Below, one piece after another: positions 30,595-61,653 of a DNA stretch of 64,000 bases. The position numbers were made by a program, and so were the translations under genes. Position 1 is the first letter of the stretch. The number at the start of each line of letters is the position of its first letter. Origin of the DNA: an uncultured Planctomycetota bacterium (GTDB lineage Bacteria > Planctomycetota > Planctomycetia > Isosphaerales > Isosphaeraceae); assembly GCA_963823665.1 (NCBI GenBank), contig CAWGMQ010000006.1, positions 1,632,001-1,696,000 of the forward strand. The letters run 5' to 3'. The notes below the pieces were generated by a model. It ran no database searches, was not told the DNA's origin, and was given only the letters and a program-made list of their open reading frames with translations.

Positions 30595-30900
30595 ATGCGT
30601 TCGTACCTTCGACTCACGACCCTCGCCGCTTCGCTACTTGTGACCGCCTGGGCGTTCCCCGGCTGTTCTTCGTCCGAGGAAGGGCAGCCTGCCAAGATGG
30701 ACGGCGGTGCCATGCCGTCCGGCAAGATGGATGGTGGTGCCATGGACAAAGGCAAGATGGATGGCGGTGCCATGGACAAAGGCAAGATGGATGGCGGTGC
30801 CATGGACAAAGGCAAGATGGATGGCGGTGCCATGGACAAAGGCAAGATGGATGATGGTGCGATGCATAAGGGAAAGATGGATTCATCGTCAAAGAACTGA
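30595..30900 (+). CDS. Methionine-rich repeat lipoprotein (MXKDX/MrpX-like)
   Basis: AGGAG RBS, lipobox FPGC, about six GKMDGGAMDK units and 13 Met in the mature part. Confidence 0.85.
   Translation: MRSYLRLTTLAASLLVTAWAFPGCSSSEEGQPAKMDGGAMPSGKMDGGAMDKGKMDGGAMDKGKMDGGAMDKGKMDGGAMDKGKMDDGAMHKGKMDSSSKN
30691..30882 (+). repeat. 30-bp coding tandem repeat
   Basis: GGCAAGATGGATGG[CT]GGTGCCATGGACAAA four times, plus degenerate flanking units. Confidence 0.95.
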
Positions 30901-31070: not shown

Positions 31071-31760
31071 ATGGCGCGCCTCGAGCGAAAACATTCCCTG
31101 GCGACGCGATTGTTTCACTGGGCGAATGTGCCGGTCCTGGCGGTCATGATCTGGAGCGGGCTGCTGATCTACTGGGCCAATGACGTTTACGAGATCCGCA
31201 TCGGGGGCGTCACACTCTTCAAGTTCTTCCCCGAGTGGTCCTACCGCGTCCTGAACGTCGGGCACCGACTGGCGGAGGGGATGGCATGGCATTTCGTCTT
31301 CATGTGGTTCTTCGCCTTGAACGGGCTGCTCTACGTCGCCTACACGATCTGGAGTGGGGAGTGGAGGCACCTGGTCCCGAACCGTCAGACTTTCGCCGAG
31401 GCGTGGCAGGTCGTGCGTCACGACCTCGGGTTGCGAACGGCGCCCTTGCCGCGGCGGAAGTTCAACGGTGCCCAGCGCCTCGCCTATACGGGCGTGGTTG
31501 CGATGGGGGCGGGCTCGCTCCTGACGGGCCTGGCCATCTACAAACCGGTCCAGCTCGCCTGGCTCACCACGCTGCTCGGCGGGTACGGGCCAGCCCGGCT
31601 CGAGCATTTCGTCCTGGCCATCGGTTACGTTGCATTCTTCGTTGTCCACATCACACAGGTGATCCGGGCCGGCTGGAACAACTTCCGGGCGATGGTCATC
31701 GGCGTCGAGGTGGCGAAGGACGAGGAGCTCTCGTATGAATACGAATACGCCCATCGATGA
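31071..31760 (+). CDS. Membrane cytochrome b subunit (Ni-hydrogenase/thiosulfate-reductase type)
   Basis: Heme-ligand His motifs RLFHWAN, WHF, ARLEHF and VVHI; KFNGAQRLAY. Confidence 0.9.
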   Translation: MARLERKHSLATRLFHWANVPVLAVMIWSGLLIYWANDVYEIRIGGVTLFKFFPEWSYRVLNVGHRLAEGMAWHFVFMWFFALNGLLYVAYTIWSGEWRHLVPNRQTFAEAWQVVRHDLGLRTAPLPRRKFNGAQRLAYTGVVAMGAGSLLTGLAIYKPVQLAWLTTLLGGYGPARLEHFVLAIGYVAFFVVHITQVIRAGWNNFRAMVIGVEVAKDEELSYEYEYAHR

Positions 31761-32706
31761 AACGCGGGCCCCCGGGAACACGCCCGTCGATGAGCAACCC
31801 TTGGTTGATCGCACGCCCATCGACGAACCGCCGGCCCAGGAGCCGCCGCCGGTTGATGTCACGGCGTACCTCGAAAGCACGAACAGCGATGAATCGTTGT
31901 CCCCCGAGCGCGCTCGGGTCGATGAATCGCTGCGCCACGAACGCGAACCGCCCGAGCCTCGTCTTCGCCGCCTCTCTCGTCGGGGGTTTGCAATGGGGGG
32001 CGTAGCCGTTCTGGCCGGTTTCGCCGGCTGGAAATGGCTGGTCACGAGAAGCGAGGAGGACGGCCTGGCCTGGCCGCTCCGCCGTGTTCTGCGGTTCAAT
32101 GAGCGCCTGGCGCAAGCGGCGTTCCGAACGTCCAGCAAATCACCTGAATTCCCCCGAAGCGCGGCCCAAGAGCCGCGCGTCAACGGCGAGATCGGCCTCG
32201 ACCCGGCGGTCGCGGCGGCCGACTGGAGGCTGCGCGTCATCGGCCCACCGGGTGAAGGCGGTGCCCGGCTGTTCCGGCTCGACGAGATCAAAGCGCTGTC
32301 TCGCGTGGAAATGACGACCGAGCTGAAGTGCATCGAGGGCTGGAGCACGGTCGTCCACTGGGCCGGCGCGCGATTGGCCGACCTCGCCGCACAGACGGGC
32401 CTGGCGACTCGCAGCGGCCGCGGGCAGGATCCGGACGGCGTCCTCCGTTATGCCGCGGTCGAGTCACCCAACCGCGAGTATTACGTCGGGCTCGACATGG
32501 CGAGCGCCCTCCACCCCCAGACCTTGCTGTGCTACGAGATGAACGGCGAGCCGTTGACTCCGGAGCACGGCGCGCCGCTCCGCCTGGTCATTCCGGTCAA
32601 GTACGGCATCAAGAACCTCAAACAAATCGGGACCATTCGATTCACGGACGTGCGCCCCGCCGACTACTGGGCCGAGCGGGGCTATGACTGGTATGCGGGA
32701 CACTGA
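31735..32706 (+). CDS. Molybdopterin-dependent oxidoreductase, sulfite-oxidase family (MsrP/YedY-like)
   Basis: SRRGF Tat-like motif, CIEGWS, ALHPQTLL.YEMNG.PL.PEHGAPLRL.IPVKYG.KN.K and YWAERGYDW. Confidence 0.92.
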   Translation: MNTNTPIDETRAPGNTPVDEQPLVDRTPIDEPPAQEPPPVDVTAYLESTNSDESLSPERARVDESLRHEREPPEPRLRRLSRRGFAMGGVAVLAGFAGWKWLVTRSEEDGLAWPLRRVLRFNERLAQAAFRTSSKSPEFPRSAAQEPRVNGEIGLDPAVAAADWRLRVIGPPGEGGARLFRLDEIKALSRVEMTTELKCIEGWSTVVHWAGARLADLAAQTGLATRSGRGQDPDGVLRYAAVESPNREYYVGLDMASALHPQTLLCYEMNGEPLTPEHGAPLRLVIPVKYGIKNLKQIGTIRFTDVRPADYWAERGYDWYAGH

Positions 32707-38600: not shown

Positions 38601-39181
38601 ATGTTATCTTATATCGGATCCTGACACTGGCCGCGGCAGTCGCGATGCTTGCCGCCTCGACAGCTTTCTCGCAAGGCAAGGGGAAACCCGCGTCCGACGA
38701 GCAGTCCGGCATGAAGGTCGGCGAGAAGGCGCCGAAATTCACACTGAAAGACCAGGAGGGCAAGGAGCGCTCGTTGGATGATCTGCTCAAGAAGGGCAAG
38801 GTTGCCCTGGTGTTTTACCGCTCGGCCGACTGGTGACCGTACTGTCGCAAGCAGTTGGTTCAACTGCAAACCGATATCAAGTCGATTGAAGACGCCGAGA
38901 TCCAGCTCATCGGCATCAGCTATGATTCGCCCACCGTGCTCAAAAAGTTCTCCGACCGGTCGAAGATTACGTTTCCCCTGCTGTCCGACCCGGAGAGCAA
39001 GACGATCGACGCCTACAACATCCGCAACAAGGCTGCGAAAGGCAAGGCGGAGGGCGTGCCCAATCCGGGTACGTTCATTTTGGATCAAGAGGGCGTGATC
39101 CGCGCCAAGCTCTTCCTGGAGAACTTTCGCGATCGCCATTCGACCGAAGAACTCGTGAAGGCGGCGAAGGCCGTCAAGTGA
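38601..39181 (+). CDS. Peroxiredoxin-like AhpC/TSA selenoprotein candidate (UxxC; Sec at TGA 38834-38836)
   Basis: ORFs 38645-38836 and 38855-39181 share a frame across one TGA, giving FYRSADW-U-PYC-RKQL. The fold continues (IGISYD, FPLLSDP, PGTFILD.EG.IR). ATG 38601 after AGGAG needs a 1-nt indel fix in the signal peptide. Confidence 0.88.
38843..38876 (+). promoter_or_regulatory. Bacterial SECIS-like stem-loop
   Basis: Perfect GCAGTTG-GTT-CAACTGC hairpin (38851-38867) 14 nt after the UGA, with GU in the loop; possible lower stem TGTCG/CGATA. Confidence 0.75.
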
Positions 39182-39210: not shown

Positions 39211-40622
39211 ATGCGCACGTTGGCCTTCAGCCTTGCGGCTTGTGGCGTGATCCTTGGCTCGAGTTCGCCCGCCTCGGCCGCGACGTATGCGCCAAAGGTC
39301 GGCGAGAGGCACCCCGACTTTACTCTGCCCACGATCGACAATCGCCGGCCCACATCGCTTTCCAGCTTCCGTGGCAAGAAAGTGCTGCTGATCCAGTTCG
39401 CCTCCTGGTGAGTGGGCTGCCGGCGGCACGTGCCAGTCTGGCACGAAGCGACTCGCGAGGCGGTGGCGCAGGGGCGGCTGGTCGTGCTGGGCGTCACCCA
39501 GGAGCAACATGCCGACCGCTGCCGGCTGTTCGCCCAGTGGAGGCAGTTCGGCTGGCCGATCCTCCACGACCCGATCAATCTTCTCGAGGCGCCGGCGGTG
39601 CCGATCGTGGTGGCGATTGACGAGCACCGCATCGTGCGCGCCGTCCGCCCGCGCCCGAAACGTTCAAAGCCGAGTTCCTCGACAAGACGTTCGCGGACGA
39701 CGCACCGGCAGGAGCTGTTCCGTCCGCCGGTGCTCCCGATCCGGCCTCGCTGCGCCGCACGGCCGAGGCGAAACCCGACCCCGGCGCCTGGCGTGCCCTG
39801 GGCGACGCCTTGACAATCTGGAGCGCCGCGAACCGCCTCGACGAGGCGATCGACGCATACACGCGTGCCCTGGTGCTTGACCCCTCGGACAAAATTGCCC
39901 TGTTCAGGCTGGGTGTCGCCCACCGGATGCGCCACGAGTCGGCAGGACGAAAGCCCGGTGACTTCCAGGCCGCGATCGATGCGTGGGGCCGCGCTCTGGC
40001 ACTCGACCCGAATCAGTACATCTGGCGACGTCGAATCGAACAGTACGGCCCGCGCCTCACCAAGCCATACGCGTTCTACGACTGGGTCGTGCAGGCCAGG
40101 GCGGAAATCGTGCGCCGCGGCGAGACGCCCGTTTCCCTCACGGTCGAGCCATACGGCTCCGAGCTCGCAGGCCCCGTCCGCGACGTCCTGACTGACCCGA
40201 CCGCCCTGGTCGAGCCCGATCCCAAGGGTCAGATCGCGCGTGACGAGCAGCGGTTCATCGAGGCCGAGGTGGTTGTTGTGCCATCGCGCGTCCGCCCGGG
40301 CCAAGCCGCGCGGCTACACCTCACCTTCCGTCCCAGCGCCGCCCACGCCGCACACTGGAACAACGAATCCACCCCGTTGCGGATCTGGGTCACCGGGGCC
40401 GAAGGCTGGACGACGTCCACGCGAATGCTCGAGGCGCCCCAGCCAGACCGGCCCGAGTCTGTTGAGGTCCGCCGCCTCGACTTCGAGGTGAAGGCGCCCA
40501 CCACCGCCGAGGGAAAGACCCGCCTCGCGGCCTACGCCCTCTACAACGCATGCGAACAGGCGGGAGGACGTTGCCTCTTCCTCCGTCAGGACCTGTCGAT
40601 CGAGCTGGACGTTGCGAAATGA
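39211..40622 (+). CDS. Exported thioredoxin-fold selenoprotein candidate (UxxC; Sec at TGA 39409-39411) with TPR and DsbD-N-like domains (frameshift near 39655)
   Basis: GAGGAG RBS, signal peptide, PDFTLP...SLSSFRGKKVLLIQFASW-U-VGC in frame. A TPR follows (AIDAY.RAL.LDP, AW.RALALDPNQY), then a C-terminal YNACEQAGGRC. Confidence 0.85.
39429..39445 (+). promoter_or_regulatory. Bacterial SECIS-like stem-loop
   Basis: Perfect CGTGCCA-GTC-TGGCACG hairpin 17 nt after the UGA, with GU in the loop. Confidence 0.72.
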
Positions 40623-40692
40623 GGGAAGCCCTCCTCCGCCTGTCGGTACGGACAACATTCGCGTTCTGAAACCTCTGCTACGGTGCCCCACT

Positions 40693-41316
40693 ATGGAGAA
40701 TGCAATCCTACCCGGCCAGTCCCGCACCAACCTGGACCAAGCGGCCTTGTTGGCACGGATGCAGGCGGGTGACGACGACGCCTTTGAAGCGTGCGTTCGC
40801 GCCCACTGGGGTCAGTTTTTGCTAGTAGCCCGGCGCATTCTCGGGAATGAAGAGGACGCCAACGACGCGGTGCAGGACGCTTTTCTGTCCGCATTCCAAG
40901 GAATTGGCCAGTTCAAGGAGCAGGCGCAGCTTGCCACCTGGCTGCACCGCATTGTGGTCAATGCGGCACTGGGCCGATTGCGCAGGCGGCAATACCACGA
41001 GGAAAGGTCGATTGAGGACCTACTCCCTCACTTCGCCGCGGGCGAGCACCAGATCGATCCGCCGGTCCCCTGGCAGGGGACCTCCGAATCGATCGTAGAG
41101 CAGCAGGAGTTATGCGCGCTGGTGCGGCGCTGTATCAGTCGGCTTCCGGAAGATTACCGTATCGTTCTACTCTTGCGCGACATCGAAGGATTAGCAACGG
41201 AGGAGACGGCCCGTATACTGAGCACCAGCACGACGGTCGTCAAGACGCGCCTGCATCGCGCACGCCAGACTCTCCGCTCGCTGCTCGACCCGCACATGCG
41301 GCGAGGAAACCTATGA
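40693..41316 (+). CDS. ECF sigma-70 factor
   Basis: EEDANDAVQDAFLSAF, TWLHRIVVN and LP..YR.V.LLRDIEGL...E.A...VKTRLHRAR. Confidence 0.95.
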   Translation: MENAILPGQSRTNLDQAALLARMQAGDDDAFEACVRAHWGQFLLVARRILGNEEDANDAVQDAFLSAFQGIGQFKEQAQLATWLHRIVVNAALGRLRRRQYHEERSIEDLLPHFAAGEHQIDPPVPWQGTSESIVEQQELCALVRRCISRLPEDYRIVLLLRDIEGLATEETARILSTSTTVVKTRLHRARQTLRSLLDPHMRRGNL

Positions 41317-41561
41317 ACTGCCGCGAATTCACCGAGTTTCTCCACGAATACATGTGCGGCGATCTGCCCGCCGACCAGCAAGCGGAGTTCGAGAAGCACC
41401 TAGCGGAGTGTCCCTGGTGCGTGGCGTATCTCGACAGTTATCGCAAGACTATTGTCCTGGTGAAGGCCGCGTTTGCCGGCTCCGAGCGAGCCTCGCAACC
41501 GGCCGACGCTCCCGAGGAGCTCATTCAGGCAATTCTCAACGCCCGGTCGCGCAGGCGGTGA
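41313..41561 (+). CDS. Soluble zf-HC2 (ZAS) anti-sigma factor
   Basis: MNC...HLAECPWC (HxxxCxxC); ATGA overlap with the sigma gene. Confidence 0.92.
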   Translation: MNCREFTEFLHEYMCGDLPADQQAEFEKHLAECPWCVAYLDSYRKTIVLVKAAFAGSERASQPADAPEELIQAILNARSRRR

Positions 41562-41615
41562 CCTCCCCACAACCAGCGGCACATGTCAATCTCTCGCGCC
41601 TTTCGCTTTTTTCTC

Positions 41616-41650
41616 TGTAACCTCCCGTCTCGGCCGGCATCCAAGAGAAT
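41616..41650 (+). promoter_or_regulatory. Candidate ECF promoter TGTAACC-N15-CATCCAAGAGAAT
   Basis: The same bipartite motif recurs at 47131-47166; this copy sits 66 nt upstream of the precursor ATG. Confidence 0.6.
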
Positions 41651-41716
41651 GTGCCCCCGTCCGCCCGCGTGGGTGGGCAGGGGCGGCATCTCCCCGTGAC
41701 TTCTCAAGGAGAACCG

Positions 41717-42160
41717 ATGCAAGTACCAGAGCTGAACCGTCGCGATTTCACCAAGCTGGCCGCGGCCGCCTTGAGCGGAATGGTGGCCGGCGCGAGCCTC
41801 GTCCGAGCGGACGACGAGCCCAAGAAGAAAGATCCCAACAAGCCGCTGCTCCTCCAGGAGCCGCACATCTGTCGCGGCTTGAACCCCACCTGCAAAGGCG
41901 AGGTGGCGGGGAAGAAAAACGAATGCGCGGGCCAGGCCCACGCTGCCACGGTGAAGGACCACTCGTGTAAGGGGCACAACGACTGTGCAGGAGAGGGCGG
42001 CTGCGGCGAGAAGCCGGGCGAGAACAAGTGTAAGGGCATGGGCGACTGTGCCATCCCCCTCAAGGACGACGCCTGGAAGAAGGCGCGGAAGAACTTCGAG
42101 GCGGCGATGACCAAGGCTAACAAGACTTTCGGCGACGCGCCCAAGAAAGAGAAAGAATAA
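41717..42160 (+). CDS. Tat-exported Cys/Gly-rich MNIO precursor candidate 1 (bufferin BufA2-like motifs)
   Basis: AAGGAG RBS, NRRDF Tat motif, 8 Cys in CxGxNxCxG(xG)-type repeats; directly upstream of DUF692. Confidence 0.82.
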
Positions 42161-42209
42161 GGCAAGCGTCACCGGCTTCGGACGATGGCCTTTCTCCGGT
42201 ACCCAGTGG

Positions 42210-42233
42210 ACGCCCCGCCGTTCGCCGGGGCGT
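42210..42233 (+). terminator. GC-rich hairpin between precursor and MNIO gene (attenuator or stabiliser)
   Basis: ACGCCCCG-N8-CGGGGCGT followed by a weak pyrimidine tail. Confidence 0.4.
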
Positions 42234-42258
42234 TCTCCGTCACCCTCACTGTGTCGAG

Positions 42259-43218
42259 ATGACCATGACACCGTCGCGCCTTGGACACCCCGACCTCGGT
42301 CTCGGCCTCGGTTTGCGGACCGTCCACTTCCCTTACATCCTTGAGCACTACCCGCCAGTAGACTGGTTCGAGATCATCTCCGAGAATTTCATGGACTCGG
42401 GCGGCCGACCGCGCTATGTCCTGGAGCAGATCGCCGAGCGCTACGCCGTGGTCATGCACGGCGTGTCGCTGTCGATCGGCAGCACCGATCCGCTTAACTT
42501 CGAGTACCTGACGAAGCTCAAACGCCTGGCGGACGCAGTGCAGCCGCGCTGGGTCTCCGATCACCTGTGCTGGACGGGCGTGGCCGGGCTGAATGCCCAC
42601 GATCTGCTGCCGATCCCGCTGAACGAACAGACGCTCGAGCACGTCGTCGCTCGTATCCGCGTCGTGCAGGACTTTCTGGCACGGCCGCTCGTGATTGAGA
42701 ACCCCAGCACTTACGTAACCTTTGCCGACTCGACCATGAGCGAATGGGAGTTTATCAGCCGCATGGCCGAGGAAACTGACTGCGGCCTGCTGCTGGACGT
42801 GAACAACGTCTATGTCTCGAGCGTCAACCACGACTTCGACCCCGCCGTTTACATCCGCTCGGTGCCGCACCGGCGGGTCGTGCAGTTCCACCTGGCGGGC
42901 CACACGAACTGCCAGACGCACTTGATCGACACTCATGATGGCCCCGTGATCGATCCTGTTTGGGAGTTGTACCGCCTCGCCCATCGCCTGACGGGCGGCG
43001 CCTCGACGCTCTTGGAATGGGACGCCAAGATTCCTCCGTTCCCGGTCGTCCACGCCGAGGTGAAGAAGGCCCGCGGTTACATGAGTGAGGCACTGGCGCC
43101 GCTGGCCGGCGTGGGCCGGCCGGTCGTGGCGTCGGCGTCGGCCGGCGTCTCGAACCCGGTGTCGTTCCTCGTCCCGGAGGTGAGCGGCGCCGACTCCGGG
43201 CCTGTGCGATCGTACTGA
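42259..43218 (+). CDS. DUF692 multinuclear non-heme iron oxidase (MNIO; BufB/MbnB family)
   Basis: [63 protein letters not shown] and LLEWD. Confidence 0.97.
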
Positions 43219-43257
43219 GGCCCTTCTAGCGGCCTCACCTGACGGAGGACAAAAGAC

Positions 43258-43848
43258 ATGGCGGCGCTCGTCGCGAAGCTGGAAAAGTGGTATCTGACTG
43301 AGATCTGGGTGCTGGACCACGTCAAGCACGTCTTCCTGCTGATCCTGCGCCTGTATTTCGACTGGGGATTCATGTCCGCCGGCCTGGGGAAACTGCTCAA
43401 CGTCGAGACCCACACCGGATTCTTCCGTGATTCGGGCATCCCCTTGCCGATGCTCAACGTCTATCTGGCGGGGACCACCGAGACCGTTTGCGGCTTCCTG
43501 CTCTTGATCGGGGCGGCCTCCCGTATCATCACGATCCCATTATTGGGCACGATGTTCGTCGCCTACCTGACCGCCCACACCGAGCAGCTCTACGCGTTAT
43601 GGGGCAACACTCCGCTCTTCTTCAAGGCGCCTCCATTCCCATATCTGTACACCTGTTTATTAATACTTTTCTCCGGGCCCGGCTTCTTCTCTGTCGACGC
43701 CATCATCCACCGGCTCCTGGAAAAGCGAAACCCACGATCCCAATCTGCCGGCCCCCCCAACGGCGTCGACGGCAGCCGAGCATCCTCGGCCGCGCCGGTC
43801 TCGATGGGCCAGCACCCATCCACCTCTGCTTCACGAGGAAAACCATGA
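43258..43848 (+). CDS. DoxX family membrane protein
   Basis: LILRL.F..GF..AG.GKL, GIPLP, E..CG.LLLIG...R and GPGFFSVD. Confidence 0.92.
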   Translation: MAALVAKLEKWYLTEIWVLDHVKHVFLLILRLYFDWGFMSAGLGKLLNVETHTGFFRDSGIPLPMLNVYLAGTTETVCGFLLLIGAASRIITIPLLGTMFVAYLTAHTEQLYALWGNTPLFFKAPPFPYLYTCLLILFSGPGFFSVDAIIHRLLEKRNPRSQSAGPPNGVDGSRASSAAPVSMGQHPSTSASRGKP

Positions 43849-44327
43849 ACGACAACACTCTCGATCGGCGCGACCTGTGCCGGCTGGCACTCGCCGCCTT
43901 GGGCGGGTTGACCGCTGGTGCCTTGGTAGGCTGTGGAGGTGGCAAGACCGAGACGGCGTCGGCACCAGGCAGGGCGGAAAAGGGCCATAAGGACACGGCG
44001 GCCGACGCGACGCCCCCGCTGCTCCAGGACCCGCACGTCTGCCGGGGCATCAACACCTGCAAGAACAAAGGCAAGAAGGGAACGACCAACGACTGCGCCG
44101 GCCAGGCGCACTGCGCAACCGTGGCCGCCCACGACTGCAACGGCATGAACGACTGCGAGGGGCATGGCGGCTGCGGCCAACACCCGGGCGAAAACGAGTG
44201 CAAGGGCAAGGGCGGTTGCGAAGTCCCCTTGAGCGACAAGACCTGGCCCAAGGCACGCAAGCAATTCGAGGTGCTGATGACCAAGGCCGGAAAAACGGTC
44301 TGGGATCCGCCTCCGAAGAAAGGCTGA
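43845..44327 (+). CDS. Tat lipoprotein, Cys/Gly-rich MNIO precursor candidate 2 (paralog of 41717-42160)
   Basis: GAGG RBS, DRRDL twin-Arg, lipobox LVGC and a 9-Cys core colinear with precursor 1. Confidence 0.82.
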   Translation: MNDNTLDRRDLCRLALAALGGLTAGALVGCGGGKTETASAPGRAEKGHKDTAADATPPLLQDPHVCRGINTCKNKGKKGTTNDCAGQAHCATVAAHDCNGMNDCEGHGGCGQHPGENECKGKGGCEVPLSDKTWPKARKQFEVLMTKAGKTVWDPPPKKG

Positions 44328-44455
44328 GTTGCCGCCGCCTGTCCGGGAACGTAGTACGGCTCAATTCCCATTGGTTCCTGCAAGTCGGGTCAACCATGCC
44401 AGGGGATCGGCATGGGTTTGATGATCGACCTCGTGATCCCAACGGAGAATGATCG

Positions 44456-45832
44456 ATGTGGCACATCACCTGGAAACGTCGCCCCTCCCGCCGCGCCGCT
44501 GAGAGACGCCGCGTTCGCCTCTGCCTGGAGTGTCTGGAGGGGCGAGCGGTCCCGTCCGCACTGCACGCAGGCCCCTTTGCCAAGGGGCCAGGCGGTACCA
44601 CCAGGACTACCGTTTACACCGAAAGCAACAACCCGGCCGCGGGCCAGAATGCGGTGCTGGCCTTCCGTCAGAACGCCGACCGCACCCTCACGGAGATCGG
44701 CTCGTTCAACACCAAAGGCACCGGGCAGAACAACTTCCCGACTATCGTCCCTGGCCTCCCTCTCGGTGGGCTCAACCTCGGCGCCGACGATACTAGTTCA
44801 GAAGTAGTGGCCACAGGCGACGGCCGCTTCCTCTTCGCGGTCAATCAGGGCAGCGATTCCGTGAGCTCGTTGCGCATCAAGCCCAATGGCGGGCTGGCTT
44901 TGATCGGCGCGTTCGCTTCCGACGGGGTGCAGCCGGACAGCCTCGCCATCGCCGGCGATACGCTGTACGTATCCAATCGCGGCGATTCGACCACGGCTAG
45001 CCCCGCCGGCACGGTCGTGCCCAACATCACCGGCTTTCGCATCGGCGGCAACGGCGAGCTCAGGGCGATCCGCGGTACGACGGTGACGTTTCCCACGGGC
45101 ACCTCGCCCTCGCAAAACCTGATCACGCCCAATGGCAAACTTCTCTTCTCCGACGTCTTCGGAGTACCGGGCGGCACGGCTGCCGGGGACAACACCTTGG
45201 CCCCCTACCAGATCGAGCGCAACGGCGCCTTGCGGCTCGCCCCCGGCGGCAACGTCGGCACGCCGGCCGGTTCGAGCGCGCTGCTGCTGGGCGCCGCCTT
45301 CAACCCGGATCAGCCCATCATCTACGTCGGCATCCCCGGGCTTAACGAGGTGGCCGTCTTCACCTACGCCAGATCCGGCCAGCTCACCTACGTCGGCGCC
45401 GCGACTACCCCGCTGGGAGGTGGCGCGACCTGCTGGGACAGCACCAATGGTCGCTATCTCTACGTCACCGACACCGTCACGGATTCGGTCAGCGTCTTCT
45501 CGTTGGCCAACCCGCTGCAACCGGTGCAGATCCAGCAGTTCTCGCTGGCCGGCCCGGAAGCTCCGCCTGGTTCGCCGCCCGGCACGATCGAGAGCGACAC
45601 CTTCCAGGTCGCTCTGTCGCCGAACGGACAGACTCTGTACGTCGTCAACCATGATTTTGGCAGCGCGACCCTCGGTTTCGCGGATGGCAACCAGCTTCAC
45701 GTCCTGTCGGTGGCCGCCAACGGCATGCTAAGCGAGCCGAATGCGCCAGTCCTCTTGGACTCGGCTGGCGCCGTCCCCGGCGATGCCCTCGCGCAGGGCA
45801 TCGCGGTGGTCGTTGGCAGAGGTCCCGCGTGA
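44456..45832 (+). CDS. Secreted beta-propeller (lactonase/Pgl-like) with planctomycete LECLEGR export motif
   Basis: VYTESN, GRFLFAVNQGSDSVS, LYVSNRG, ATCW and LSPNGQTLYV blades. Confidence 0.85.
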   Translation: MWHITWKRRPSRRAAERRRVRLCLECLEGRAVPSALHAGPFAKGPGGTTRTTVYTESNNPAAGQNAVLAFRQNADRTLTEIGSFNTKGTGQNNFPTIVPGLPLGGLNLGADDTSSEVVATGDGRFLFAVNQGSDSVSSLRIKPNGGLALIGAFASDGVQPDSLAIAGDTLYVSNRGDSTTASPAGTVVPNITGFRIGGNGELRAIRGTTVTFPTGTSPSQNLITPNGKLLFSDVFGVPGGTAAGDNTLAPYQIERNGALRLAPGGNVGTPAGSSALLLGAAFNPDQPIIYVGIPGLNEVAVFTYARSGQLTYVGAATTPLGGGATCWDSTNGRYLYVTDTVTDSVSVFSLANPLQPVQIQQFSLAGPEAPPGSPPGTIESDTFQVALSPNGQTLYVVNHDFGSATLGFADGNQLHVLSVAANGMLSEPNAPVLLDSAGAVPGDALAQGIAVVVGRGPA

Positions 45833-45978
45833 GGCGAGTGGGTCCCGCGTCGTGGCAGAACGGTTCTCTTTCTAGCCCGCAAGCGCAGGCAAGGGATCAT
45901 CCGGTCCTCGCTTTCGCTGCGGGCAGGTAGTGTTTTTTCCGCTGGTTCGTAGTCTCAAGAGCGAGCACTGGAGCAATC

Positions 45979-46875
45979 ATGACCAACGCGAACAATTCCT
46001 GGCGCGATCTCGGACAGATAGAGCGCTGGATGCAGGCCGCCATCATGCATCCGGTGGGCGTCGAGGAAGGCATCGCCTCCGCAGAGGCTCGGCGCCACAT
46101 CGACATCGGGCCCGACGAGGCGGAAACCGTCGTGACTCGCTCACGGGCGCTGACGGCCATGGATCGCCTGGCGATTTACGCCTACGCCTACTACGCCCGG
46201 CTGCTGGAGTGCATGCGCGAGGAGTTCCCCGTCTTGAAGCATGCCCTCGGAGAGGAGGTCTTCGATGCTTTTGCTGTCGGCTATTTGCAACATTACCCAT
46301 CGCGGAGTTACACCCTGTTCCAGCTCGCCGCGAACTTCCCCCAATACCTCGCTGAGACCCGCCCCGACGCGGACGGGGCCGACGGCTTGCCGGCGGACTG
46401 GCCGGACTTCGTCATTGACCTCGCCCGACTCGAGTTGACCTTCAATGAAGTCTTCGACGGGCCGGGGGTGGAGGGGGAGCGCCTCCTGGAGGCCGACCCG
46501 CTGCTGGCCATCACCCCTGAACGCCTGCTGGAATCGCGCCTCGTGGGTGTGCCGTGTTTGCGGCTGCTCGTCCTACGCTCCCCGGTCCATCGGTACTTCA
46601 CCGCGGTGCGCCGCCACGAGGACCCGGGCCCGCCCGAACCCGCCAAAACCTTTCTGGCGGTCACGCGCCGGCACTTCGTAGTGTGCCACTACGAACTCTC
46701 TCGCCCCGCCTACCAGCTCTTGCACGCTCTGCTCGAAGGTGCATCGGTGGGCCAGGCAATCAGCGGGGCGTTAAAGGAGGCCGGATCGGACCTCGAGCTC
46801 TTGCCGCCTCACCTTTGGACGTGGTTCCATGATTGGGCTGCCGAAGGATTCTTCCGGGCGGTGGAACTGGGATGA
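45979..46875 (+). CDS. DUF2063 MNIO partner protein (BufC/HvfC-like)
   Basis: RLAIY..AY.ARL.E.M.EEFP.L...LGEE.F....Y...YPS.S.TL and DLARLE. Confidence 0.9.
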   Translation: MTNANNSWRDLGQIERWMQAAIMHPVGVEEGIASAEARRHIDIGPDEAETVVTRSRALTAMDRLAIYAYAYYARLLECMREEFPVLKHALGEEVFDAFAVGYLQHYPSRSYTLFQLAANFPQYLAETRPDADGADGLPADWPDFVIDLARLELTFNEVFDGPGVEGERLLEADPLLAITPERLLESRLVGVPCLRLLVLRSPVHRYFTAVRRHEDPGPPEPAKTFLAVTRRHFVVCHYELSRPAYQLLHALLEGASVGQAISGALKEAGSDLELLPPHLWTWFHDWAAEGFFRAVELG

Positions 46876-48173: not shown

Positions 48174-48884
48174 ATGCGAACCAGATTTCAGTCACTCGCC
48201 GTTTCGGGTTTCCTGGTCGCTACGATTGTTGTCGGTTTGGCCGCGCGCTGGGGCGTCCTGGCGAAGAATCCCGATTTCACCAGACTCTCGAGGTCGCCGG
48301 CGGCTCCGTTGCCGACCGCGCCGCCGGCGTCCGGCTTGGAGCAGGCGACCTTTGGGGCCGGCTGTTTCTGGTCAACCCAGGTCGAGTTTCAGCAATTGAT
48401 CGGGGTGCATTCCACGGTTTGCGGGTACAGCGGCGGCGCCGTTGAGAATCCCACTTACGAACAGGTCTGCACCGGCACAACCGGACACGCCGAGGTCGTC
48501 CAGGTCACTTTCGACCCGAAGGTGATCTCCTACTCGGACTTGCTGGAAGTCTTCTGGCACACGCACGACCCGACCACCCTGAACCGCCAAGGCCACGACG
48601 TCGGGACGAATTACCGTTCGGTCATTTTCTACCACACTCTGAAGCAGCGGGAGGCGGCCGAGCTTTCCAAGCGGAAACTTGAGGCGTCGGCGGCATTCGG
48701 GGCGCCGATCGTCACGGCGATCGTACCGTTCTCGGCCTTCTATCCAGCGGAAGACTATCACCAGAACTACTACATGGATCATCCCGGTCAGCCGTACTGC
48801 GCCGCGGTCATCCGGCCGAAACTCGAGACGTTCGCGAAGACATTCGCGGACAAACTCAAGCCAGGTGCGGCAAAATCCCGCTGA
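48174..48884 (+). CDS. msrA: Peptide-methionine (S)-S-oxide reductase with N-terminal export/anchor segment
   Basis: FGAGCFW, GYSGG, NPTYEQVC, GHAEVV, HDPT..NRQG.DVG..YRS.IF and AEDYHQNY. Confidence 0.96.
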   Translation: MRTRFQSLAVSGFLVATIVVGLAARWGVLAKNPDFTRLSRSPAAPLPTAPPASGLEQATFGAGCFWSTQVEFQQLIGVHSTVCGYSGGAVENPTYEQVCTGTTGHAEVVQVTFDPKVISYSDLLEVFWHTHDPTTLNRQGHDVGTNYRSVIFYHTLKQREAAELSKRKLEASAAFGAPIVTAIVPFSAFYPAEDYHQNYYMDHPGQPYCAAVIRPKLETFAKTFADKLKPGAAKSR

Positions 48885-51862: not shown

Positions 51863-52780
51863 ATGAGTCGTGTGTTGCTCGCTCGCTCCCAGGTACTGAC
51901 CGGGTCACTCCTCGCCCTGGCCCTCCTCGCCACCGGGAGCCTGCAATCGGTCAAGGCGGATCAGATGAATGAGCAGCACCGGATCGGCCTCGGGGGCTAC
52001 TGTCCGGTCTGCATTCTCGACGCCAACAAGTGGGCGAAGGGGTCGCCTGAGCACCAGGCGACTTACGACGGTGTGACGTACTACTTTCCGGAGGAGGCCA
52101 TCAAGGAGAAGTTCGTGGCTAACCCCGCGAGGTATGTGCCCGCCTTGGGCGGCGACTGCATCGTCTGCTACGCCAAGCTCGGGAAACGCGTCCCTGGCAA
52201 TATCAAGCACTCCGCGCGCTACGGCGACAGGCTGTTCCTGTTCCCTGGAGCGGAGCAGCAGCAGGCCTTTCTCAGCAATCCGGTAGAGTTCGCCAACGCT
52301 GACCTCGCGCTGAAGGGCGACTGCTCGGTCTGTCTGGTCCACTCCAACAAGCGTGTCGCCGGCAAGCCCGAGTTCGCGGAGATCAAGGACGGATTCCGCT
52401 ATCTGTTCGTGTCCGCCCGCGAGCAGGCCGCGTTTCGCAAGGACCCGGCCCTCTATGTCGCCCCGGCTTCTAAGCCGGCTGCGATGGAGTCACAGACCAG
52501 CCATCGGCCCACAGCCAACGGCTCCCTGACGGTCATGGGGAGGACGACGTGCGCGGGCTGCGAGCACGGTGTCGCGCCGATCCAGAACCCTGAGGAGCTC
52601 GGGCTGGCCGTCAACACCGACGACGGCAGAGTGGTGATCGTTGAGCAGGCGCACAGGCTCTACCGCGATGCCTACGAGCACCGCTATGACGGACAACGCG
52701 TACGCGTGAGCGGCCGCGTCATCAAGCAGCAGGGACGCTACTCCTGGATTGAGCCGACCGAGCTGATGGTCCAGAGGTGA
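51863..52780 (+). CDS. Exported double-YHS-domain protein with C-terminal CxxC domain
   Basis: GYCPVC..YDG.TYYF...F..NP..Y.P and GDC.VC repeats; TCAGCEH. Confidence 0.85.
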   Translation: MSRVLLARSQVLTGSLLALALLATGSLQSVKADQMNEQHRIGLGGYCPVCILDANKWAKGSPEHQATYDGVTYYFPEEAIKEKFVANPARYVPALGGDCIVCYAKLGKRVPGNIKHSARYGDRLFLFPGAEQQQAFLSNPVEFANADLALKGDCSVCLVHSNKRVAGKPEFAEIKDGFRYLFVSAREQAAFRKDPALYVAPASKPAAMESQTSHRPTANGSLTVMGRTTCAGCEHGVAPIQNPEELGLAVNTDDGRVVIVEQAHRLYRDAYEHRYDGQRVRVSGRVIKQQGRYSWIEPTELMVQR

Positions 52781-52998
52781 GTCCGACCCAAACGCGGCGG
52801 GCGGACCGGCCCCTTCGCCGGTCGCTCGTCCGCGGGGCGACCCAGACAGATCGACCCGGTCCATCCGTGCTAGAGGTTCGTCCGCGGCACGGGGAGATCT
52901 GCCCGGTGGGTCCGCTTTACAAGCGTGACCTACCAGGCGAGATACGTCTGATCAAGATACCGATGATTTTGACGACGCAAAACAAAGGTTGTCCCGCC

Positions 52999-55008
52999 AT
53001 GAAATCTCCCCTTCGACTCCTGACTCTTGCCTTCGCGCTCAGTTTCCTCGACTCGCCGCTCCGGCCCGTTCAGGCCGCCGACAATCCTGCGGTCGTGCGG
53101 ATATCCTCGACGTTGACACGCGTATCGGATACAGTCGGCCAGCTATCCGTGACGGCCGATATCGAGAGCGGATTCCACATCTACGCCCAGTCCCAGCCGC
53201 GGCCGTTCCTGGCGACGAGGATCACCGTGGCCGAGTCGAGGGTGGTGCGCGTCACCGGAGTATTCACTCCGTCGCGGCCGCCGAAAATCATTCGGCACCC
53301 AACTCTGGGGGTAGAGCTCCACGAGTACGAGGGCCAGGTCACCTGGACCACCCCCGTCGAGTTCTCGCGGGCCCCGACTGCCGAAGTCGTCGTGCAGGGA
53401 ACGGTCTTCGCTCAGGCCTGCCAGGAGGATCGCTGCCTGGCCCCGAAGATGTACGAGTTTATGGCCCCACTCCGCACCGATTCCGCACCGTCTCACGGCG
53501 GCTCGGCCCAAGGTGTCGCAGTCGGCGAAGCTGACGCGTCGGAGCCCATCGGCGCCCCTCTCGCTCACGCCGGTGCGAGGAAAGAAGCACGCCCGCCAGC
53601 CGATGGGGGACCTTCCAGCGGGAGCTTCTCGCTCGATCAGATCGAAATCGCCGCGGCCGCATCCGGTCGTGATTCCGTCTGGGCGATCTTGCCCCTCGCG
53701 TTCGTCGCGGGTTTCCTGCTCAACCTAATGCCGTGCGTGCTGCCGGTGGTCGGCCTGAAACTCCTTTCGTTTGTGCAGCAGTCGAACGACAGTCGACGGC
53801 GAGTCTTGTTGCTCAATGTCGCCTACTCGGCGGGATTGATGTCGGTGATGCTCGTGCTGGCCACGTTCGCCGTCTTCGCCGGCTTGGGATGCGGCGAGCA
53901 GTTCAGCAGTACCGCGTTCAGCGTGACGCTCGCGGCCATCGTCTTCGCTTTCGGATTGAGCTTTCTCGGTATCTGGGAGATCCCGGCGCCCGGCTTCGAG
54001 GGGACGGCCGGCGGCGAAGGCTACGGCGGCGCGTTCAGCAAGGGCGTGTTGAGCACGCTCCTGGCGACTCCGTGCAGCGGTCCCTTCCTGGGCTCAGCCT
54101 TGGCTTGGGCGATCGTTCAGCCCACGTACGTCACTTACGCCGTTTTCGCCTCGGTCGCGCTAGGTATGGCCAGCCCCTATCTGCTGGTCGGCCTGTTCCC
54201 CCGGCTCGTGCGGTTTCTGCCGCGGCCGGGTAACTGGATGGTCGCGTTCAAACAAATGATGGGCTTCGTGCTCCTGGCGACCGTCGTTTACCTGCTGAGC
54301 TTCATTCCTGCTCCGAGCGTTGTCCCCACTGTGCTCTTGCTGCTCGGCGTCGGCTTCGGATGCTGGTGGGTGGGCCGAGGTCTGTTGCTGGAGTCGCGCG
54401 GGCTACGACTGCGAGCATGGTTCGTCGCCGCGGCAAGCGTCGCGGCAACTGGCTGGCTGTCCTTCGGCTGGCTGGAAGGCGTGATGGCCGGCCGGTTCGA
54501 AAGCGCTGTCGAACGAAGGCTCGGTGCCGCCGCCGATCCTTCCGCGGAGCAGCTGGTGTTCTCCCGTCTCGGTCTCGACCGCATCGCCTGGGAGCCGTTC
54601 TCGAAACACAGGCTGGAGCAGCTCGTCAACGGAGGCAACACTGTGTTCGTCGATTTCACGGCCGACTGGTGCTTGACCTGCAAGACGAACGAAGCGACTG
54701 CCATCGAACGACCTGAGGTCGCCCGGCTGATTCGCGAGAACGGTATCGTCTTGCTCAGGGCAGACAGGATGAAACCGGCTCCCGAGGTCGATGAAACCCT
54801 GCGTCGTCTGGGCAACAAGGCTGCGTCGATACCGTTCTATGCCATCTTCCCCGGCGGTTCCTCCCACACGCCGATCCTGTCGGACGGGCTGCTGACCGGC
54901 CCGGAGCCGATCGTGAATGCTCTTCGTCAGGCGGGTCCGTCACGCCCCATGTTGGCCTCGAACTTGAAAATTGCACCGGCCTCGGGAAACGACGCAGGAG
55001 GATTCTAA
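52999..55008 (+). CDS. dsbD: Protein-disulfide reductase DsbD family
   Basis: N-domain [16 protein letters not shown] domain [11 protein letters not shown] and [13 protein letters not shown]-terminal [13 protein letters not shown]. Confidence 0.93.
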
Positions 55009-55571
55009 TGGCTAGCCGAGTGAAATCGCAGCAGGTCCTCTTGGTACTTGCACTGGCTATTGCGCTGCCCCTGATCGCAAGAGCGAGAATCAGGCGCGCG
55101 ACTGCTCCAGAGTTCAAGGAGAAAGCTACCATGTCGCAAGCATCAGAACAGGATGGGACCCCGCTTCCCGGGACCGACGCTGAGTGGAAGCAGCGTCTCA
55201 CGCCCGAGCAGTACACGATCCTACGGCGCAAGGGTACAGAGACGGCTTTCACCGGCAAGTACTGGCACACCAAGGCGAAGGGAGTGTACCGCTGCGCCGG
55301 CTGCGGCCAGCCGCTTTTCTCCTCGGACGCCAAATTCGACTCGGGCACGGGATGGCCCAGTTTCTGGACAGCGTATGCCCCCAATACCGTAGCGACCGGA
55401 TCGGACGATAGCCTCTGGATGCACCGCACCGAGGTGCTCTGCAACCGCTGCGGCGGTCACCTCGGCCACGTGTTTTCCGATGGACCGCAACCGACCGGCC
55501 TGCGTTACTGCATCAACTCAGCGGCGCTGAAATTGGACGAGCCCGAATCGCCCCAGAAAGCGAACAAATGA
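55008..55571 (+). CDS. msrB: Peptide-methionine (R)-S-oxide reductase with N-terminal signal
   Basis: [54 protein letters not shown]. Confidence 0.97.
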
Positions 55572-55932: not shown

Positions 55933-56328
55933 ATGTCCCGCGCTATTCCCAAATGCGATTGGTCAGCCATACTGGCTGACTTCCACCGCTCTGGTTTGAC
56001 CCAAACTGAGTTTTGTCGCCGCCGTCATATCTCCGTCAGCTCCTTCCGCAGTTGGCTATACGGTCTCCGTGGCGGATTTCCTACCGCCGGCCCCTCGGAA
56101 AGCCGTCGCCCGGCGCCGGTCTCTGCCCCGGCGAGCTCCGCGCTCCCCGCCTTCCTTCCTGTGCTTGTCCGTCCCCAATCGAGGGTTTCTACGGCCGACC
56201 CCCACGTCTCCCATCCACCCGCCTCGCTCGAGCTCGTCGTGAGTGAACGACACTTCGTCCGCATTCCACCCGGCTTTGATCCGGCGACCCTTCATCAACT
56301 CCTCGACGTCCTGGAAGATCGGCCGTGA
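55933..56328 (+). CDS. tnpA: IS66 accessory protein TnpA
   Basis: W......SGLTQTEFCRRR.IS.SSF..W HTH; F.PV and IPPGFD..TL. Confidence 0.9.
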   Translation: MSRAIPKCDWSAILADFHRSGLTQTEFCRRRHISVSSFRSWLYGLRGGFPTAGPSESRRPAPVSAPASSALPAFLPVLVRPQSRVSTADPHVSHPPASLELVVSERHFVRIPPGFDPATLHQLLDVLEDRP

Positions 56329-56705
56329 TCAACTTCCCACCCACAGTCCGCATTTTCTTGGCCGTTGGGCCAGCGGATCTCCGGAAGGGATTCGACGGCC
56401 TCGCTGCCCTCACCTCTTCGACCATCGGCTTGGATCCCCTCTGCGGCCATCTCTTCGTCTTTCGCAATCGGCGGGGCGATCGCCTCAAGATCCTCTACTG
56501 GGACCGCGATGGCTACGCGCTCTGGTACAAGCGGCTCGAGCGAGGCGTCTTCCGCTTCCCTCAACCCACGGCGAACCGCATCGAAGTCTCGCCGGCCGAG
56601 ATGGCTGCCATCCTCGCCGGCATCGATTTACGCACCGCGGGCCGCCAGCGACGCTACACTTTGCCGGCGCCCATCCCCATCTCGCAGGCAGATGCACTCG
56701 TATAA
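56325..56705 (+). CDS. tnpB: IS66 accessory protein TnpB
   Basis: DLRKGFDGL and LFVFRNRRGDRLKILYWDRDG..LWYKRLE.G.F. Confidence 0.96.
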   Translation: MINFPPTVRIFLAVGPADLRKGFDGLAALTSSTIGLDPLCGHLFVFRNRRGDRLKILYWDRDGYALWYKRLERGVFRFPQPTANRIEVSPAEMAAILAGIDLRTAGRQRRYTLPAPIPISQADALV

Positions 56706-56755
56706 TCTTCTGAGAATCTCTCGTCACATTGACGGCGGTCGACCGTAATAACGGT

Positions 56756-58317
56756 ATGACGACGGCGGCCGATTCACTCCCCACCGATCTGGAAACCGCC
56801 CATCAGCTCATCCGCGAGCTCTTGGAGACGCTGCGCCAGCAGACCGTCCTGAACGAGCACCTCCAGCATCAGCTCGAAAAGCTCCTGCGGCGGATCTACG
56901 GCCCCAGGACCGAAAAGCTCGACCCCAACCAACTCCTCCTTTTCGCCCGCGAGATCTTGGAAGCAACCGGAGTCGACCCCGCTGCGGCCCCACCGGCTGC
57001 CGACGCGAAGACAACCGAGTCGGTTGGCCAAGCGGAACCAACCAAGAAGAACGGGCACGGTCGTAAGCCGCTGCCCAGGAGCCTCGAGCGCCGGCGCAAG
57101 GTCCACGACGTTCTCCCCGAACTACTCCCGTGCCCCGACTGCGGCGTCATCCGCACCGGCATTGGCGAGGAGGTTCGCGAGCAGCTTGAATTTGTTCAGG
57201 CCAGCTTGATTGTGGTCGAGCATGTGCGGCCCAAGTACGCGTGCAAGGCATGCCAGGCCAACGTGATCATTGCCGAACGACTTCCTGAGCCGATCGAGAA
57301 AGGTTTGCCTGGCCCAGGGCTCATGGCCCAGGTGATCGTCAGCAAGTACGCCGACCATTTGCCGCTTTATCGGCAGGAAGGAATCTTCCGCCGTCACGGC
57401 GTGGAGCTGTCTCGTCAGACGATGTGCGATTGGATGGCGGTCTCTGCCGAATTGTTGGAACCGATCGTCGCGGAGATGCACTGCGAGATCCTCAAATCGC
57501 GGGTCATTCAGACTGACGACACGCCAGTACCCGTTCTGGACCGGAGTTTGGGGAAGACGCGGACAGGCCGGCTCTGGGACTACCTGGGGGATCGCGATCA
57601 TCCCCACGTGGTGTACGACTACACGCCGGATCGCAGCGGCGAGGGACCGCAGCGGATGCTCGATGGTTATGAAGGCTACCTTCAAGCCGACGCGTATTCG
57701 GCCTACGACGCGATCTACGCCGGGAAGAAGATCATCGAAGTGGGGTGCTGGTGCATGCGCGGCGGAAGTTCCACGAGTCCAAGTCGAGCGACGCGGTAAG
57801 GGCGCACGTGGCGATGGCCATGATTCAGCAGTTGTACAAGGTGGAGAAGGACACCAAGGATCAGGACGACGCGGCGCGCGGGGCATTGCGCCAGGAGCGT
57901 TCGAAGCCGATCTTGAATGAGATCCACGCTTGGTTGTTACAGGAAAAGAGTCGCGTATTGCCCAAGAGTCCGATCGGCGAAGCGATCGGGTATGCCTTGA
58001 ATCACTGGCAGGCGCTCGAGAGATTCACCGAGGCGGGTTGGCTGTCGATCGACAATAACGCCAGCGAGCGCGGGATGAAGCCGGTGGCACTCGGTCGAAA
58101 GAATTGGTTATTCGCCGGGAGTGACGCCGGCGGCAAGACGGCGGCGACGCTGATGAGCTTGTGCATGACGTGCAAGAACGTGGGGGTGGATGCGTTTGCC
58201 TATCTGCGTGACGTGCTGGAGCGGATCAGCACGCACCCCGCGCGGCGAATCAGAGAGTTGCTGCCGGATCAGTGGAAGAAAGAACGGGTGGCAGCGGAGA
58301 CGAAGCCGGTGGAGTGA
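56756..58317 (+). CDS. tnpC: IS66 transposase TnpC (frameshift near 57750)
   Basis: CPDCG zinc ribbon, KYADHLPLYRQ, DDTPV, GYLQADAY, CW.HARRKF and IDNN.SER..KPVALGRKNWLFAGS. Confidence 0.95.
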
Positions 58318-60330: not shown

Positions 60331-61377
60331 TCAGCAGGTGCCGACGAGCGGGCGGAATCCCGGACCGAAAAGGCGATCGTTCGAGCGGGTTGTCGGTGGA
60401 TTGAATGGAGAGCCGCAGGCGGGACAGGTCGCGACGAACGCGCTGTAGGAATCGTCGGTCGTAATGCCCCAAGTATCGATTACTGACAGGTTCAAGAGCC
60501 GGTTCCGTGCAGCGCGGCGCGCCTTGCGTCGTGCGATGACCCGGTCGAGATCGCGAGCATTATCAGCGATATCGGCAGGGGCCTTTCCTGGGTTCCAGGG
60601 CAATTCTTCGGCCTGGAAGACCTGGCCGTTGACGCGATCCTGCGCGAAGACGACCACTCGAAAACTCGCCGCGTCCGCGCCGCCAGGGAGTTCGATGAGG
60701 AACGAAACGGCCCGAGTTCGGGTTCGATCGAGTTTGAGAAACCTTTGGTCGAGCCGGCGGACGATGTGATGTTCGACGAGCATCAGTCCCGCGTTCTCGC
60801 CGCGAAGAACCCTGGTCTTGACTGGGTCTTCGGTCAGTGCCATCCCGATCAAGAGCGCGCGTCCGGCCACCTCGGGAGATCGGGCCGCGACTTTCACCAA
60901 CGCGGTCTTTCGATTCCCCATGCCGCCCAACTTGAGGTCGAGGGCGACCTCCGCCGTCATTTTGAGGGCCTGTTCGATGGCGGCCACGGCCATCGCACGG
61001 TCCGACCCGAAGAGGGGCTGGCGGCCGTCGACCATCAATAGCGGGGTGATCCGCAGGTCGTCGCGGCGCTGCACCCCGTTGTAGTCGCATTGGCGGCGGG
61101 TGTACGAAGCGTCCGAATAGGGGTCGGGCCAGGGTTGATTGAAATAGTCGACATGGAGGTTGAGTGGCACGATCCGGTCGCGGTCAACGCCCGGCTCGGT
61201 AAGCTTGCCGAGGAGGTCCGAAGCGGGTGCGCAGGAACTGCACCCCTGCGAGGTAAAGAGCTCCACGAGCACTCTCTTCGGCTGGTTCACCGGATATTCC
61301 CCTGCGGCCGCCGCGACAGGACGGAGGACCGTCAGCGTAAAGAAAACGGCGATCGCCTTCAGCGCACGGTTCTTCAT
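60331..61377 (-). CDS. DUF1223 thioredoxin-like protein (copy 3; 3' end uncertain)
   Basis: Signal peptide, VLVELFTSQGCSSCAPA, HVDYFN..W.DPYS and GENAG..L..H.IVR. Confidence 0.88.
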   Translation of the reverse strand: MKNRALKAIAVFFTLTVLRPVAAAAGEYPVNQPKRVLVELFTSQGCSSCAPASDLLGKLTEPGVDRDRIVPLNLHVDYFNQPWPDPYSDASYTRRQCDYNGVQRRDDLRITPLLMVDGRQPLFGSDRAMAVAAIEQALKMTAEVALDLKLGGMGNRKTALVKVAARSPEVAGRALLIGMALTEDPVKTRVLRGENAGLMLVEHHIVRRLDQRFLKLDRTRTRAVSFLIELPGGADAASFRVVVFAQDRVNGQVFQAEELPWNPGKAPADIADNARDLDRVIARRKARRAARNRLLNLSVIDTWGITTDDSYSAFVATCPACGSPFNPPTTRSNDRLFGPGFRPLVGTC

Positions 61378-61653
61378 GAGTGTCGCCTCGATTGAGTCGT
61401 GCGCCCGGAATCGGCAAGCCCGAAACGCCGTCGGGGGCTTGTCTGGCGAAATCGTCTGAGGACTTACCGCCGGGGGTGGCAAAACCGGACAGGCCCTGTT
61501 TGCGGCCGACCGCGCGAAAATGAATCGATGGGGAAATACCGCGAAATCATGGATGAACACCGTTGTGAACTCTTGACCGCGCTTCTTCGCCACGCCGGTC
61601 CCGTGGACATTCGCGAGTTTGTCCCGGCGACCGGTCGCGGCGAATGGCAAATG

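Follow-up and report, generated by a model that had tools for sequence, protein, structure and literature searches.

The window, that is, the whole stretch of 64,000 nucleotides that was analysed, carries two neighbouring genes in which an in-frame UGA is probably read as selenocysteine (Sec) (Table 1). The downstream gene is predicted, from its sequence and a structural model, to encode a soluble exported selenoprotein of 470 amino acids, in which a TlpA/ResA-type thioredoxin (Trx) domain with a UxxC site is followed by TPRs and by an Ig-like domain homologous to the N-terminal domain of DsbD (DsbD-N). An earlier note on this DNA had proposed the order signal peptide, Trx(UxxC), TPR and DsbD-N-like domain, a length of about 470 residues, and an indel at about 39655 after which the protein goes on into the TPRs. 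The order is borne out by Pfam and TPR matches, the model and a profile comparison, the length by the 470 codons obtained with the missing base restored, and the indel by an extra C in a short contig and by five in-frame relatives.

Table 1. Features of the selenoprotein locus, in window positions.
Feature	Position	Strand	Basis
Upstream AhpC/TSA-family gene with W-U-P-Y-C, putative second selenoprotein	38601..39181	+	PF00578 E=1.2e-36; TGA in 20/20
UGA (38834-38836) and SECIS hairpin (38851-38867) of the upstream gene	38834..38867	+	7-bp hairpin, 20/20 loci
Whole gene	39211..40622	+	470 codons after restoring the base apparently missing from the assembly near 39656
Signal-peptide-like N-terminus ending in A-S-A, preceded by a GAGGAG ribosome site	39211..39279	+	Sequence
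TlpA/ResA-type thioredoxin domain, UxxC (U67, C70)	39280..39686	+	PF00578 E=3.5e-12; fold match; V-P conservation
UGA, predicted to be read as selenocysteine	39409..39411	+	TGA in 86/87 loci; Sec machinery in genome
Putative SECIS hairpin	39429..39445	+	Covariation in 75 sequences
V-P cis-proline loop, P131	39601-39603	+	V-P nearly invariant
C run, one base apparently missing from the assembly (apparent frameshift)	39654..39657	+	Relatives and short contigs
TPR helices, then conserved NQYIWRRRI.QYGPRL.KPY.FY.W motif	39729..40061	+	TPR_11 E=6.4e-11
Ig-like DsbD-N-homologous domain, conserved HWNNE loop	40245..40619	+	Model and profile comparison
Cx6C pair (C448, C455) on the last beta-hairpin	40551-40553 and 40572-40574	+	Alignment, model

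From the ATG at 39211, the frame runs from a signal-like N-terminus to KKVLLIQFASW, TGA (39409-39411) and VGCRRHVPVWH, and after a change of frame near 39655 it continues into the TPRs and then the C-terminal CEQAGGRC. In intact relatives, 66 codons precede the TGA and about 403 follow it. Compared with six close relatives, of which five are in frame and the sixth, L045, has an additional base, the window has one base fewer at the C run. A 151-nt contig of run X2 matches the window without a difference over 39516-39656 and then reads one more C, and a related contig of run X1 has a G inserted there. Given this additional C in an otherwise identical contig (a single one of low depth, which may share its source with the assembly), we read the frameshift near 39656 as a base lost in assembly. 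A purely heuristic signal-peptide rule, based on charge and hydrophobicity, is satisfied in 75 of the 84 loci with a plausible start.

Homologous loci were gathered using the C-terminal part of the protein only, so that the sample is unbiased by the codon at the UGA site. Five of the 92 loci examined have no alignment over this site; in the other 87, the codon is TGA in 86 and AGA in one, and neither TGC nor TGT occurs. All 86 TGA loci have the U-[A/V]-G-C motif. In 78 of them the frame stays open over 360-425 codons; two reach the end of the contig and six are interrupted. Programmed frameshifting as the cause of the frame change was ruled out by the 78 open loci. In locus L095 (2605-2607), where AGA replaces TGA, the SECIS hairpin and the C-terminal Cys pair are intact and the genome has selB; this AGA may reflect an error or decay.

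The UGA lies within F-A-S-W-U-V-G-C, at the first Cys of the TlpA-type F.ASWCxxC motif, as the earlier note had recognized. A mixture of TGA and TGY homologs, as expected beforehand, was not seen among the matches examined: none of the 87 loci has a Cys codon, and the Sec-less homologs are mostly redox-dead. The CxxC form is absent from the 87 loci and from 17 full-length Sec-less proteins (found among the best 120 matches of one protein search and the best 150 of another), two of which have CxxS. Cys at the UGA position is found in more distant TlpA/ResA proteins.

The hairpin that follows the UGA, CGUGCCA-GUC-UGGCACG (-9.6 kcal/mol), begins 17 nt past it; the 7-bp stem and this spacing had been described correctly beforehand, and the 3-nt loop, given earlier as GU, reads GUC. 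Across the family, the hairpin has a stem of 5-6 bp and a 5-nt loop with an invariant G. In a gap-free alignment (75 sequences), 97.8% of the cells of the 6-bp stem are paired and 24 cells are changed on both sides, counts that are inflated by relatedness; this level of covariation was reached by none of 500 shuffles, and slid registers gave 20-50%. The changes in the stem swap amino acids in pairs (V..H, L..Q and I..Y), a pattern not predicted by protein constraint alone. The bacterial SECIS model as described in PMC13188914 has a loop of 3-9 nt with G in the first two loop positions, a stem of 4-16 bp, a distance of 16-37 nt from the UGA and an energy of at most -7.5 kcal/mol, and the present hairpin satisfies it with a GUC loop, 7 bp, 24 nt and -9.6 kcal/mol.

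The genome encodes selA, selB and selD, all above curated cut-offs, and a tRNA-Sec with the anticodon UCA. Hairpin covariation, a SECIS search and a search for Sec genes had been put forward as checks on the recoding, and all turned out in its favor. Among 77 carrier genomes tested (28/28 of one locus set and 49/63 loci of a second), selB was found in 73, and the remaining four have selA matches (three over the cut-off) and tRNA-Sec. The background of selB is high, with 217 of 301 genomes in a sample of the phylum; within this sample, it occurs in 27/28 carriers versus 189/272 others (Fisher p=0.0014, with kin being non-independent).

It is very improbable that the UGA is a true stop or encodes another residue, or that the copy in the window is a frameshifted pseudogene. 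Although database products of 380-420 aa start after the UGA, most homologs have GCG rather than a start codon there, and termination at the UGA would cut the thioredoxin fold at its active site. The window is indeed frameshifted as assembled, but the missing base is present in the otherwise identical contig. Six of the 86 TGA loci are broken downstream, whereas the SECIS hairpin covaries and Sec machinery was seen in 77/77 carriers tested. Comparative sequence evidence makes recoding of the UGA to Sec via the SECIS hairpin almost certain.

With the UGA counted as a residue, the first 148 codons match AhpC/TSA (PF00578) and Redoxin, and the frame from 39654 matches TPR models. AlphaFold2 predicts three domains for the mature protein of L042, an intact relative modeled with Cys in place of the UGA (pLDDT 95.9, pTM 0.93). 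Residues 1-135 of this model correspond to a ResA/DsbE/TlpA-type thioredoxin (best match 4grf, Z 16.1, rmsd 1.8, 130 aligned), and TPR matches cover residues 150-257. The hallmarks of the TlpA/ResA/CcmG type are present, namely the thioredoxin fold with an N-terminal hairpin, W-[C/U]-x-x-C and the cis-Pro loop.

The last 127 residues are modeled as an Ig-like sandwich (pLDDT 96.6). The fold matches listed for this domain are generic Ig folds; they include the C-terminal region of SOQ1 (chain 7djl, Z 9.0, rmsd 2.5, 98 aligned), which is tied with many Ig folds, and E. coli nDsbD is absent among the 50 listed. A profile search of solved structures with this domain gave nothing significant, the cut-off of Pfam DsbD_N (PF11412) was not reached (one of 39 members matched, E=0.18), and pairwise BLAST against the DsbD-N domain encoded elsewhere in the window was non-significant (E=0.35). 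Comparison by hhalign of the 39-member profile with 30 PF11412 domains from the same phylum gave a probability of 95.8 and E=8e-9 over 121 columns, with both Cys in register (reversed control, E=0.39), and an HMM built from the 30 domains picks the window's domain from the 39-sequence set with E=1.2e-9. PF10633, another Ig family (four sequences), gave a probability of 4.4 and is a weak control, since the values for DsbD-N subsets of matched depth spread from 2.8 to 93. The domain is taken as a distant DsbD-N homolog; the likeness proposed earlier is upheld by the profile comparison with PF11412, while the 50 fold matches listed do not include E. coli nDsbD. A catalytic role for a third Cys (HADRC) was ruled out, as it occurs in only 52/78 loci.

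The Cys pair in this domain is present in 74 of the 78 intact Sec loci, in 72 of them as Cx6C. It occurs in only one of 17 full-length homologs without Sec, and that one has the CxxS form. These homologs comprise seven from the best 120 matches of one protein search and ten more from the best 150 of another, the other matches being mostly products that start after the UGA; at the UGA site they have SxxC (9), SxxS (4), CxxS (2), SxxG (1) or DxxS (1). In a FastTree phylogeny of 196 sequences, from which both Cys sites were left out, they fall at five places: 13 of them group in a clade with support 0.97, and the other four stand singly (parent support 0.04-0.90). The clade of 13, which includes P0131, P0132, P0143, P0146, P0157 and P0163 and one sequence labelled Phycisphaerae, consists of exported homologs that have mostly lost both redox sites and keep the fold and the TPR motifs; it is possible that they are non-catalytic chaperones or binders. 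The family appears to use Sec or to drop the redox function, with no fallback to Cys.

Because the pair is mostly kept with Sec and mostly lost without it, these data point to an internal relay of the kind that the earlier note had suggested. Loss of both sites fits a single pathway and does not give the direction of flow; alternatively, a general decay of redox function would equally lead to it. The C-terminal pair might also be structural, bind metal or act with other proteins only, so that no internal relay exists. Four Sec members do lack the pair, but a structural disulfide should survive in exported Sec-less homologs, and it is lost in 16/17. The best fold matches of the last domain are generic Ig-like folds, yet its two Cys line up with the catalytic pair of DsbD-N. 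Downstream in this genome there is a bufferin cluster linked to copper, but bufferin genes adjoin the gene in one other locus only. We regard the absence of a relay as improbable.

The reading that we favor, with moderate confidence and by analogy with known systems, is that the protein is an exported seleno-oxidoreductase with two redox sites, which would maintain proteins of the cell envelope in the reduced state, electrons passing from UxxC via the C-terminal pair to the substrate. A membrane transporter of the DsbD/ScsB/CcdA type would reduce the Se-S bond of the UxxC site. The selenolate would then reduce the C-terminal disulfide of the same chain, as in transfer from cDsbD to nDsbD or from the Trx domain of SOQ1 to its C-terminal domain, and the resulting dithiol would reduce an oxidized envelope substrate, which may be a disulfide, a sulfenic acid or methionine sulfoxide. 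The neighboring UxxC AhpC/TSA protein is one candidate substrate. The TPRs would serve as a scaffold between the two redox domains; if the protein is rigid, the two sites could be kept apart, which would speak against the relay. DsbD and MsrA- and MsrB-like proteins are encoded in the same window, and DsbD adjoins the gene in one locus only. In SOQ1, a Trx-like domain and an nDsbD-like domain with a Cys pair are combined with an NHL scaffold (bioRxiv 2021.03.16.435614); in vitro, electrons pass from the former domain to the latter, and the latter is active as a methionine-sulfoxide reductase (bioRxiv 2024.11.01.621559). It is by this analogy that we propose the direction of flow.

Electrons may instead flow in reverse, the nDsbD-like domain being a tethered shuttle that recharges the UxxC site, as nDsbD does CcmG/TlpA, and the Sec site working on TPR-bound clients or peroxides; we give this arrangement, the main rival to our reading, some weight, although we think it unlikely. 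The joint loss of the two sites agrees with it equally well. Sec usually occupies the substrate-attacking position, which suits reverse flow. However, a soluble nDsbD-like domain requires a thioredoxin-fold donor, and the only such donor in the chain is the UxxC domain itself. Reverse flow would also suit a Trx domain of the ResA/CcmG/TlpA class, whose usual electron donors are DsbD-alpha or ScsB-alpha, as in the known flow from ScsB to TlpA to PprX (PMC3322552). In SOQ1, the precedent in which flow was measured, electrons go from Trx to the C-terminal domain (bioRxiv 2024.11.01.621559).

The start of the upstream AhpC/TSA gene, which the earlier note had missed, was inferred at 38601, and another one-base indel in the signal region seems to hide where its signal peptide begins. 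Such a gene adjoins the selenoprotein gene in 23/60 loci (flanks of up to about 3 kb), almost all of them labelled Planctomycetota. In the 20 loci in which the motif (ADW-U-PYC here) is visible, the codon is TGA in all, and the 7-bp hairpin present in all 20 shows synonymous compensatory changes. The neighbor lies on the same strand in ten loci and is divergent in ten, being tandem in Isosphaeraceae-like and divergent in Gemmataceae-like loci. Among 75 AhpC/TSA matches in this genome, three others (C4:2630214-2630654, C4:2823527-2823901 and C3:1914-2111) have one in-frame TGA, and these are likely to be further selenoproteins.

Downstream, 40612-46875 (+) encodes an ECF sigma factor, a small anti-sigma-like gene and a bufferin-type cluster with a BufA-like Cys-rich precursor (41651), a BufB MNIO over the cut-off (42259), DoxX/HvfX (43258), a second precursor-like frame near 43800-44327 and an HvfC-like gene (45979). 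A family-wide link to these genes was ruled out, the sigma gene being in tandem in two other loci and the bufferin genes in one. At 31071-32706, 48174-48884 and 52777-55571 (+), the window further encodes an MsrPQ-like pair, DsbD and genes that, judged by their sequences, are presumably MsrA- and MsrB-like, several of all these with signal-like N-termini; there are also three DUF1223 genes (37723, 47277 and about 60331-61650, -). These Msr, DsbD and DUF1223 genes, of which DsbD and the first DUF1223 are backed by library matches, may form an envelope redox island; the DsbD, DUF1223, ECF sigma, bufferin and Msr-like genes do not travel with the selenoprotein gene. A small lipoprotein-like, Met-rich ORF with tandem KMDGGAMDKG repeats (30595-30900, +) is possibly a copper binder or an MsrPQ substrate. 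At 56243-58317 (+) lie what are, judged by their sequences, presumably IS66-like transposase genes, apparently frameshifted.

The best NCBIfam match of the protein is NF041054 (WAxxUGC_long), which covers Trx and TPR (residues 33-275, E=4e-16); an intact relative scores 59.2 bits against a cut-off of 300, which places the family outside NF041054, and the motif is U-[A/V]-G-C in our family versus UGC in NF041054. Eleven sister loci (L103-L113) were found with the NF041054 model, and as none exceeds its cut-off they are NF041054-like only. They have Trx and TPR in common with our family, their motif being WASW-U-GC..L-P/S-V/G-W, with W-U-G-C in 9/11 and, in the eight listed, the same hairpin 3 nt closer to the UGA. 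They have no C-terminal Ig domain, and 9/11 have a Cx4C pair in the N-terminal domain, which is a parallel two-site design. L109, which has neither Sec nor Cys at the site, lacks the Cx4C, as does L113. Judged by these alignments, our family is a sister of WAxxUGC, with a motif one codon longer and a different accessory dithiol domain.

SOQ1 of Arabidopsis and human NHLRC2 share the layout of a Trx-like domain, a repeat scaffold and an nDsbD-like C-terminal domain with a Cys pair (bioRxiv 2021.03.16.435614), and C689/C696 of NHLRC2 have the Cx6C spacing of our family (bioRxiv 2024.11.01.621559). Our protein differs in having helical TPRs in place of the NHL beta-propeller and Sec in place of Cys, and in being a soluble exported bacterial protein; the likeness is one of layout and does not imply common ancestry of the whole proteins. 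DsbD/ScsB (alpha, gamma) with CcmG/ResA/TlpA uses the same two redox modules, an Ig-like dithiol domain and a thioredoxin, whereas our protein has no transmembrane domain, the reverse order, a TPR spacer and Sec.

UGC-containing Prx-like selenoproteins were already listed in 2008 (PMC2398784), and the UxxC entries of a 2026 catalogue comprise Prx-like thiol:disulfide oxidoreductase (PF00578), redoxin (PF08534) and thiol-disulfide isomerase-like (cd02966) proteins (PMC13188914). These predicted selenoproteins carry UxxC in a PF00578/PF08534 domain, as ours does, and this domain-based catalogue would file our family under its UxxC thioredoxin entries. Its Table 1 covers 119 families, and none of their descriptions mentions a TPR or DsbD-N domain. 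No TPR or TlpA entries were found in deep-Sep (main text and four supplements) or in the main text and part of one supplement of BSepDB, and no paper on the family was found among those listed by full-text literature searches; the BSepDB database and RefSeq may hold members already. The earlier note did not recognize this architecture as a described selenoprotein family; this stands in that no catalogue entry names TPR or DsbD-N, and needs qualification in view of the WAxxUGC sister and the SOQ1/NHLRC2 layout. The family is built from known modules in an uncatalogued and widespread combination.

Close relatives (78-96% identity) are labelled Isosphaeraceae or Planctomycetota. At E<=1e-30 there are 482 clusters (50% identity), full membership having been checked for a part only, and the record labels include Planctomycetota, Verrucomicrobiota, Acidobacteriota, Gemmatimonadetes, Latescibacterota and Armatimonadaceae. 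Tundrisphaera lichenicola and Tautonia species are cultured carriers.

A bolder and rather doubtful proposal is that this protein arrived independently at the SOQ1/NHLRC2 design, as an envelope repair enzyme that is self-contained and strictly dependent on selenium; its Sec site would drive an nDsbD-like domain that is itself a methionine-sulfoxide or sulfenic-acid reductase. Together with the WAxxUGC sister, it would then be a case in which UxxC and UxC motifs change into one another through a single codon while the SECIS is shared, with different accessory dithiol domains recruited in the two lineages. The authors of the SOQ1 work themselves ask whether nDsbD-like domains act as terminal reductases (bioRxiv 2024.11.01.621559), and the present protein offers a soluble single-chain bacterial model for testing this. 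The finding adds to the bacterial selenoproteome a large, systematically truncated family, whose gene is routinely mis-annotated.
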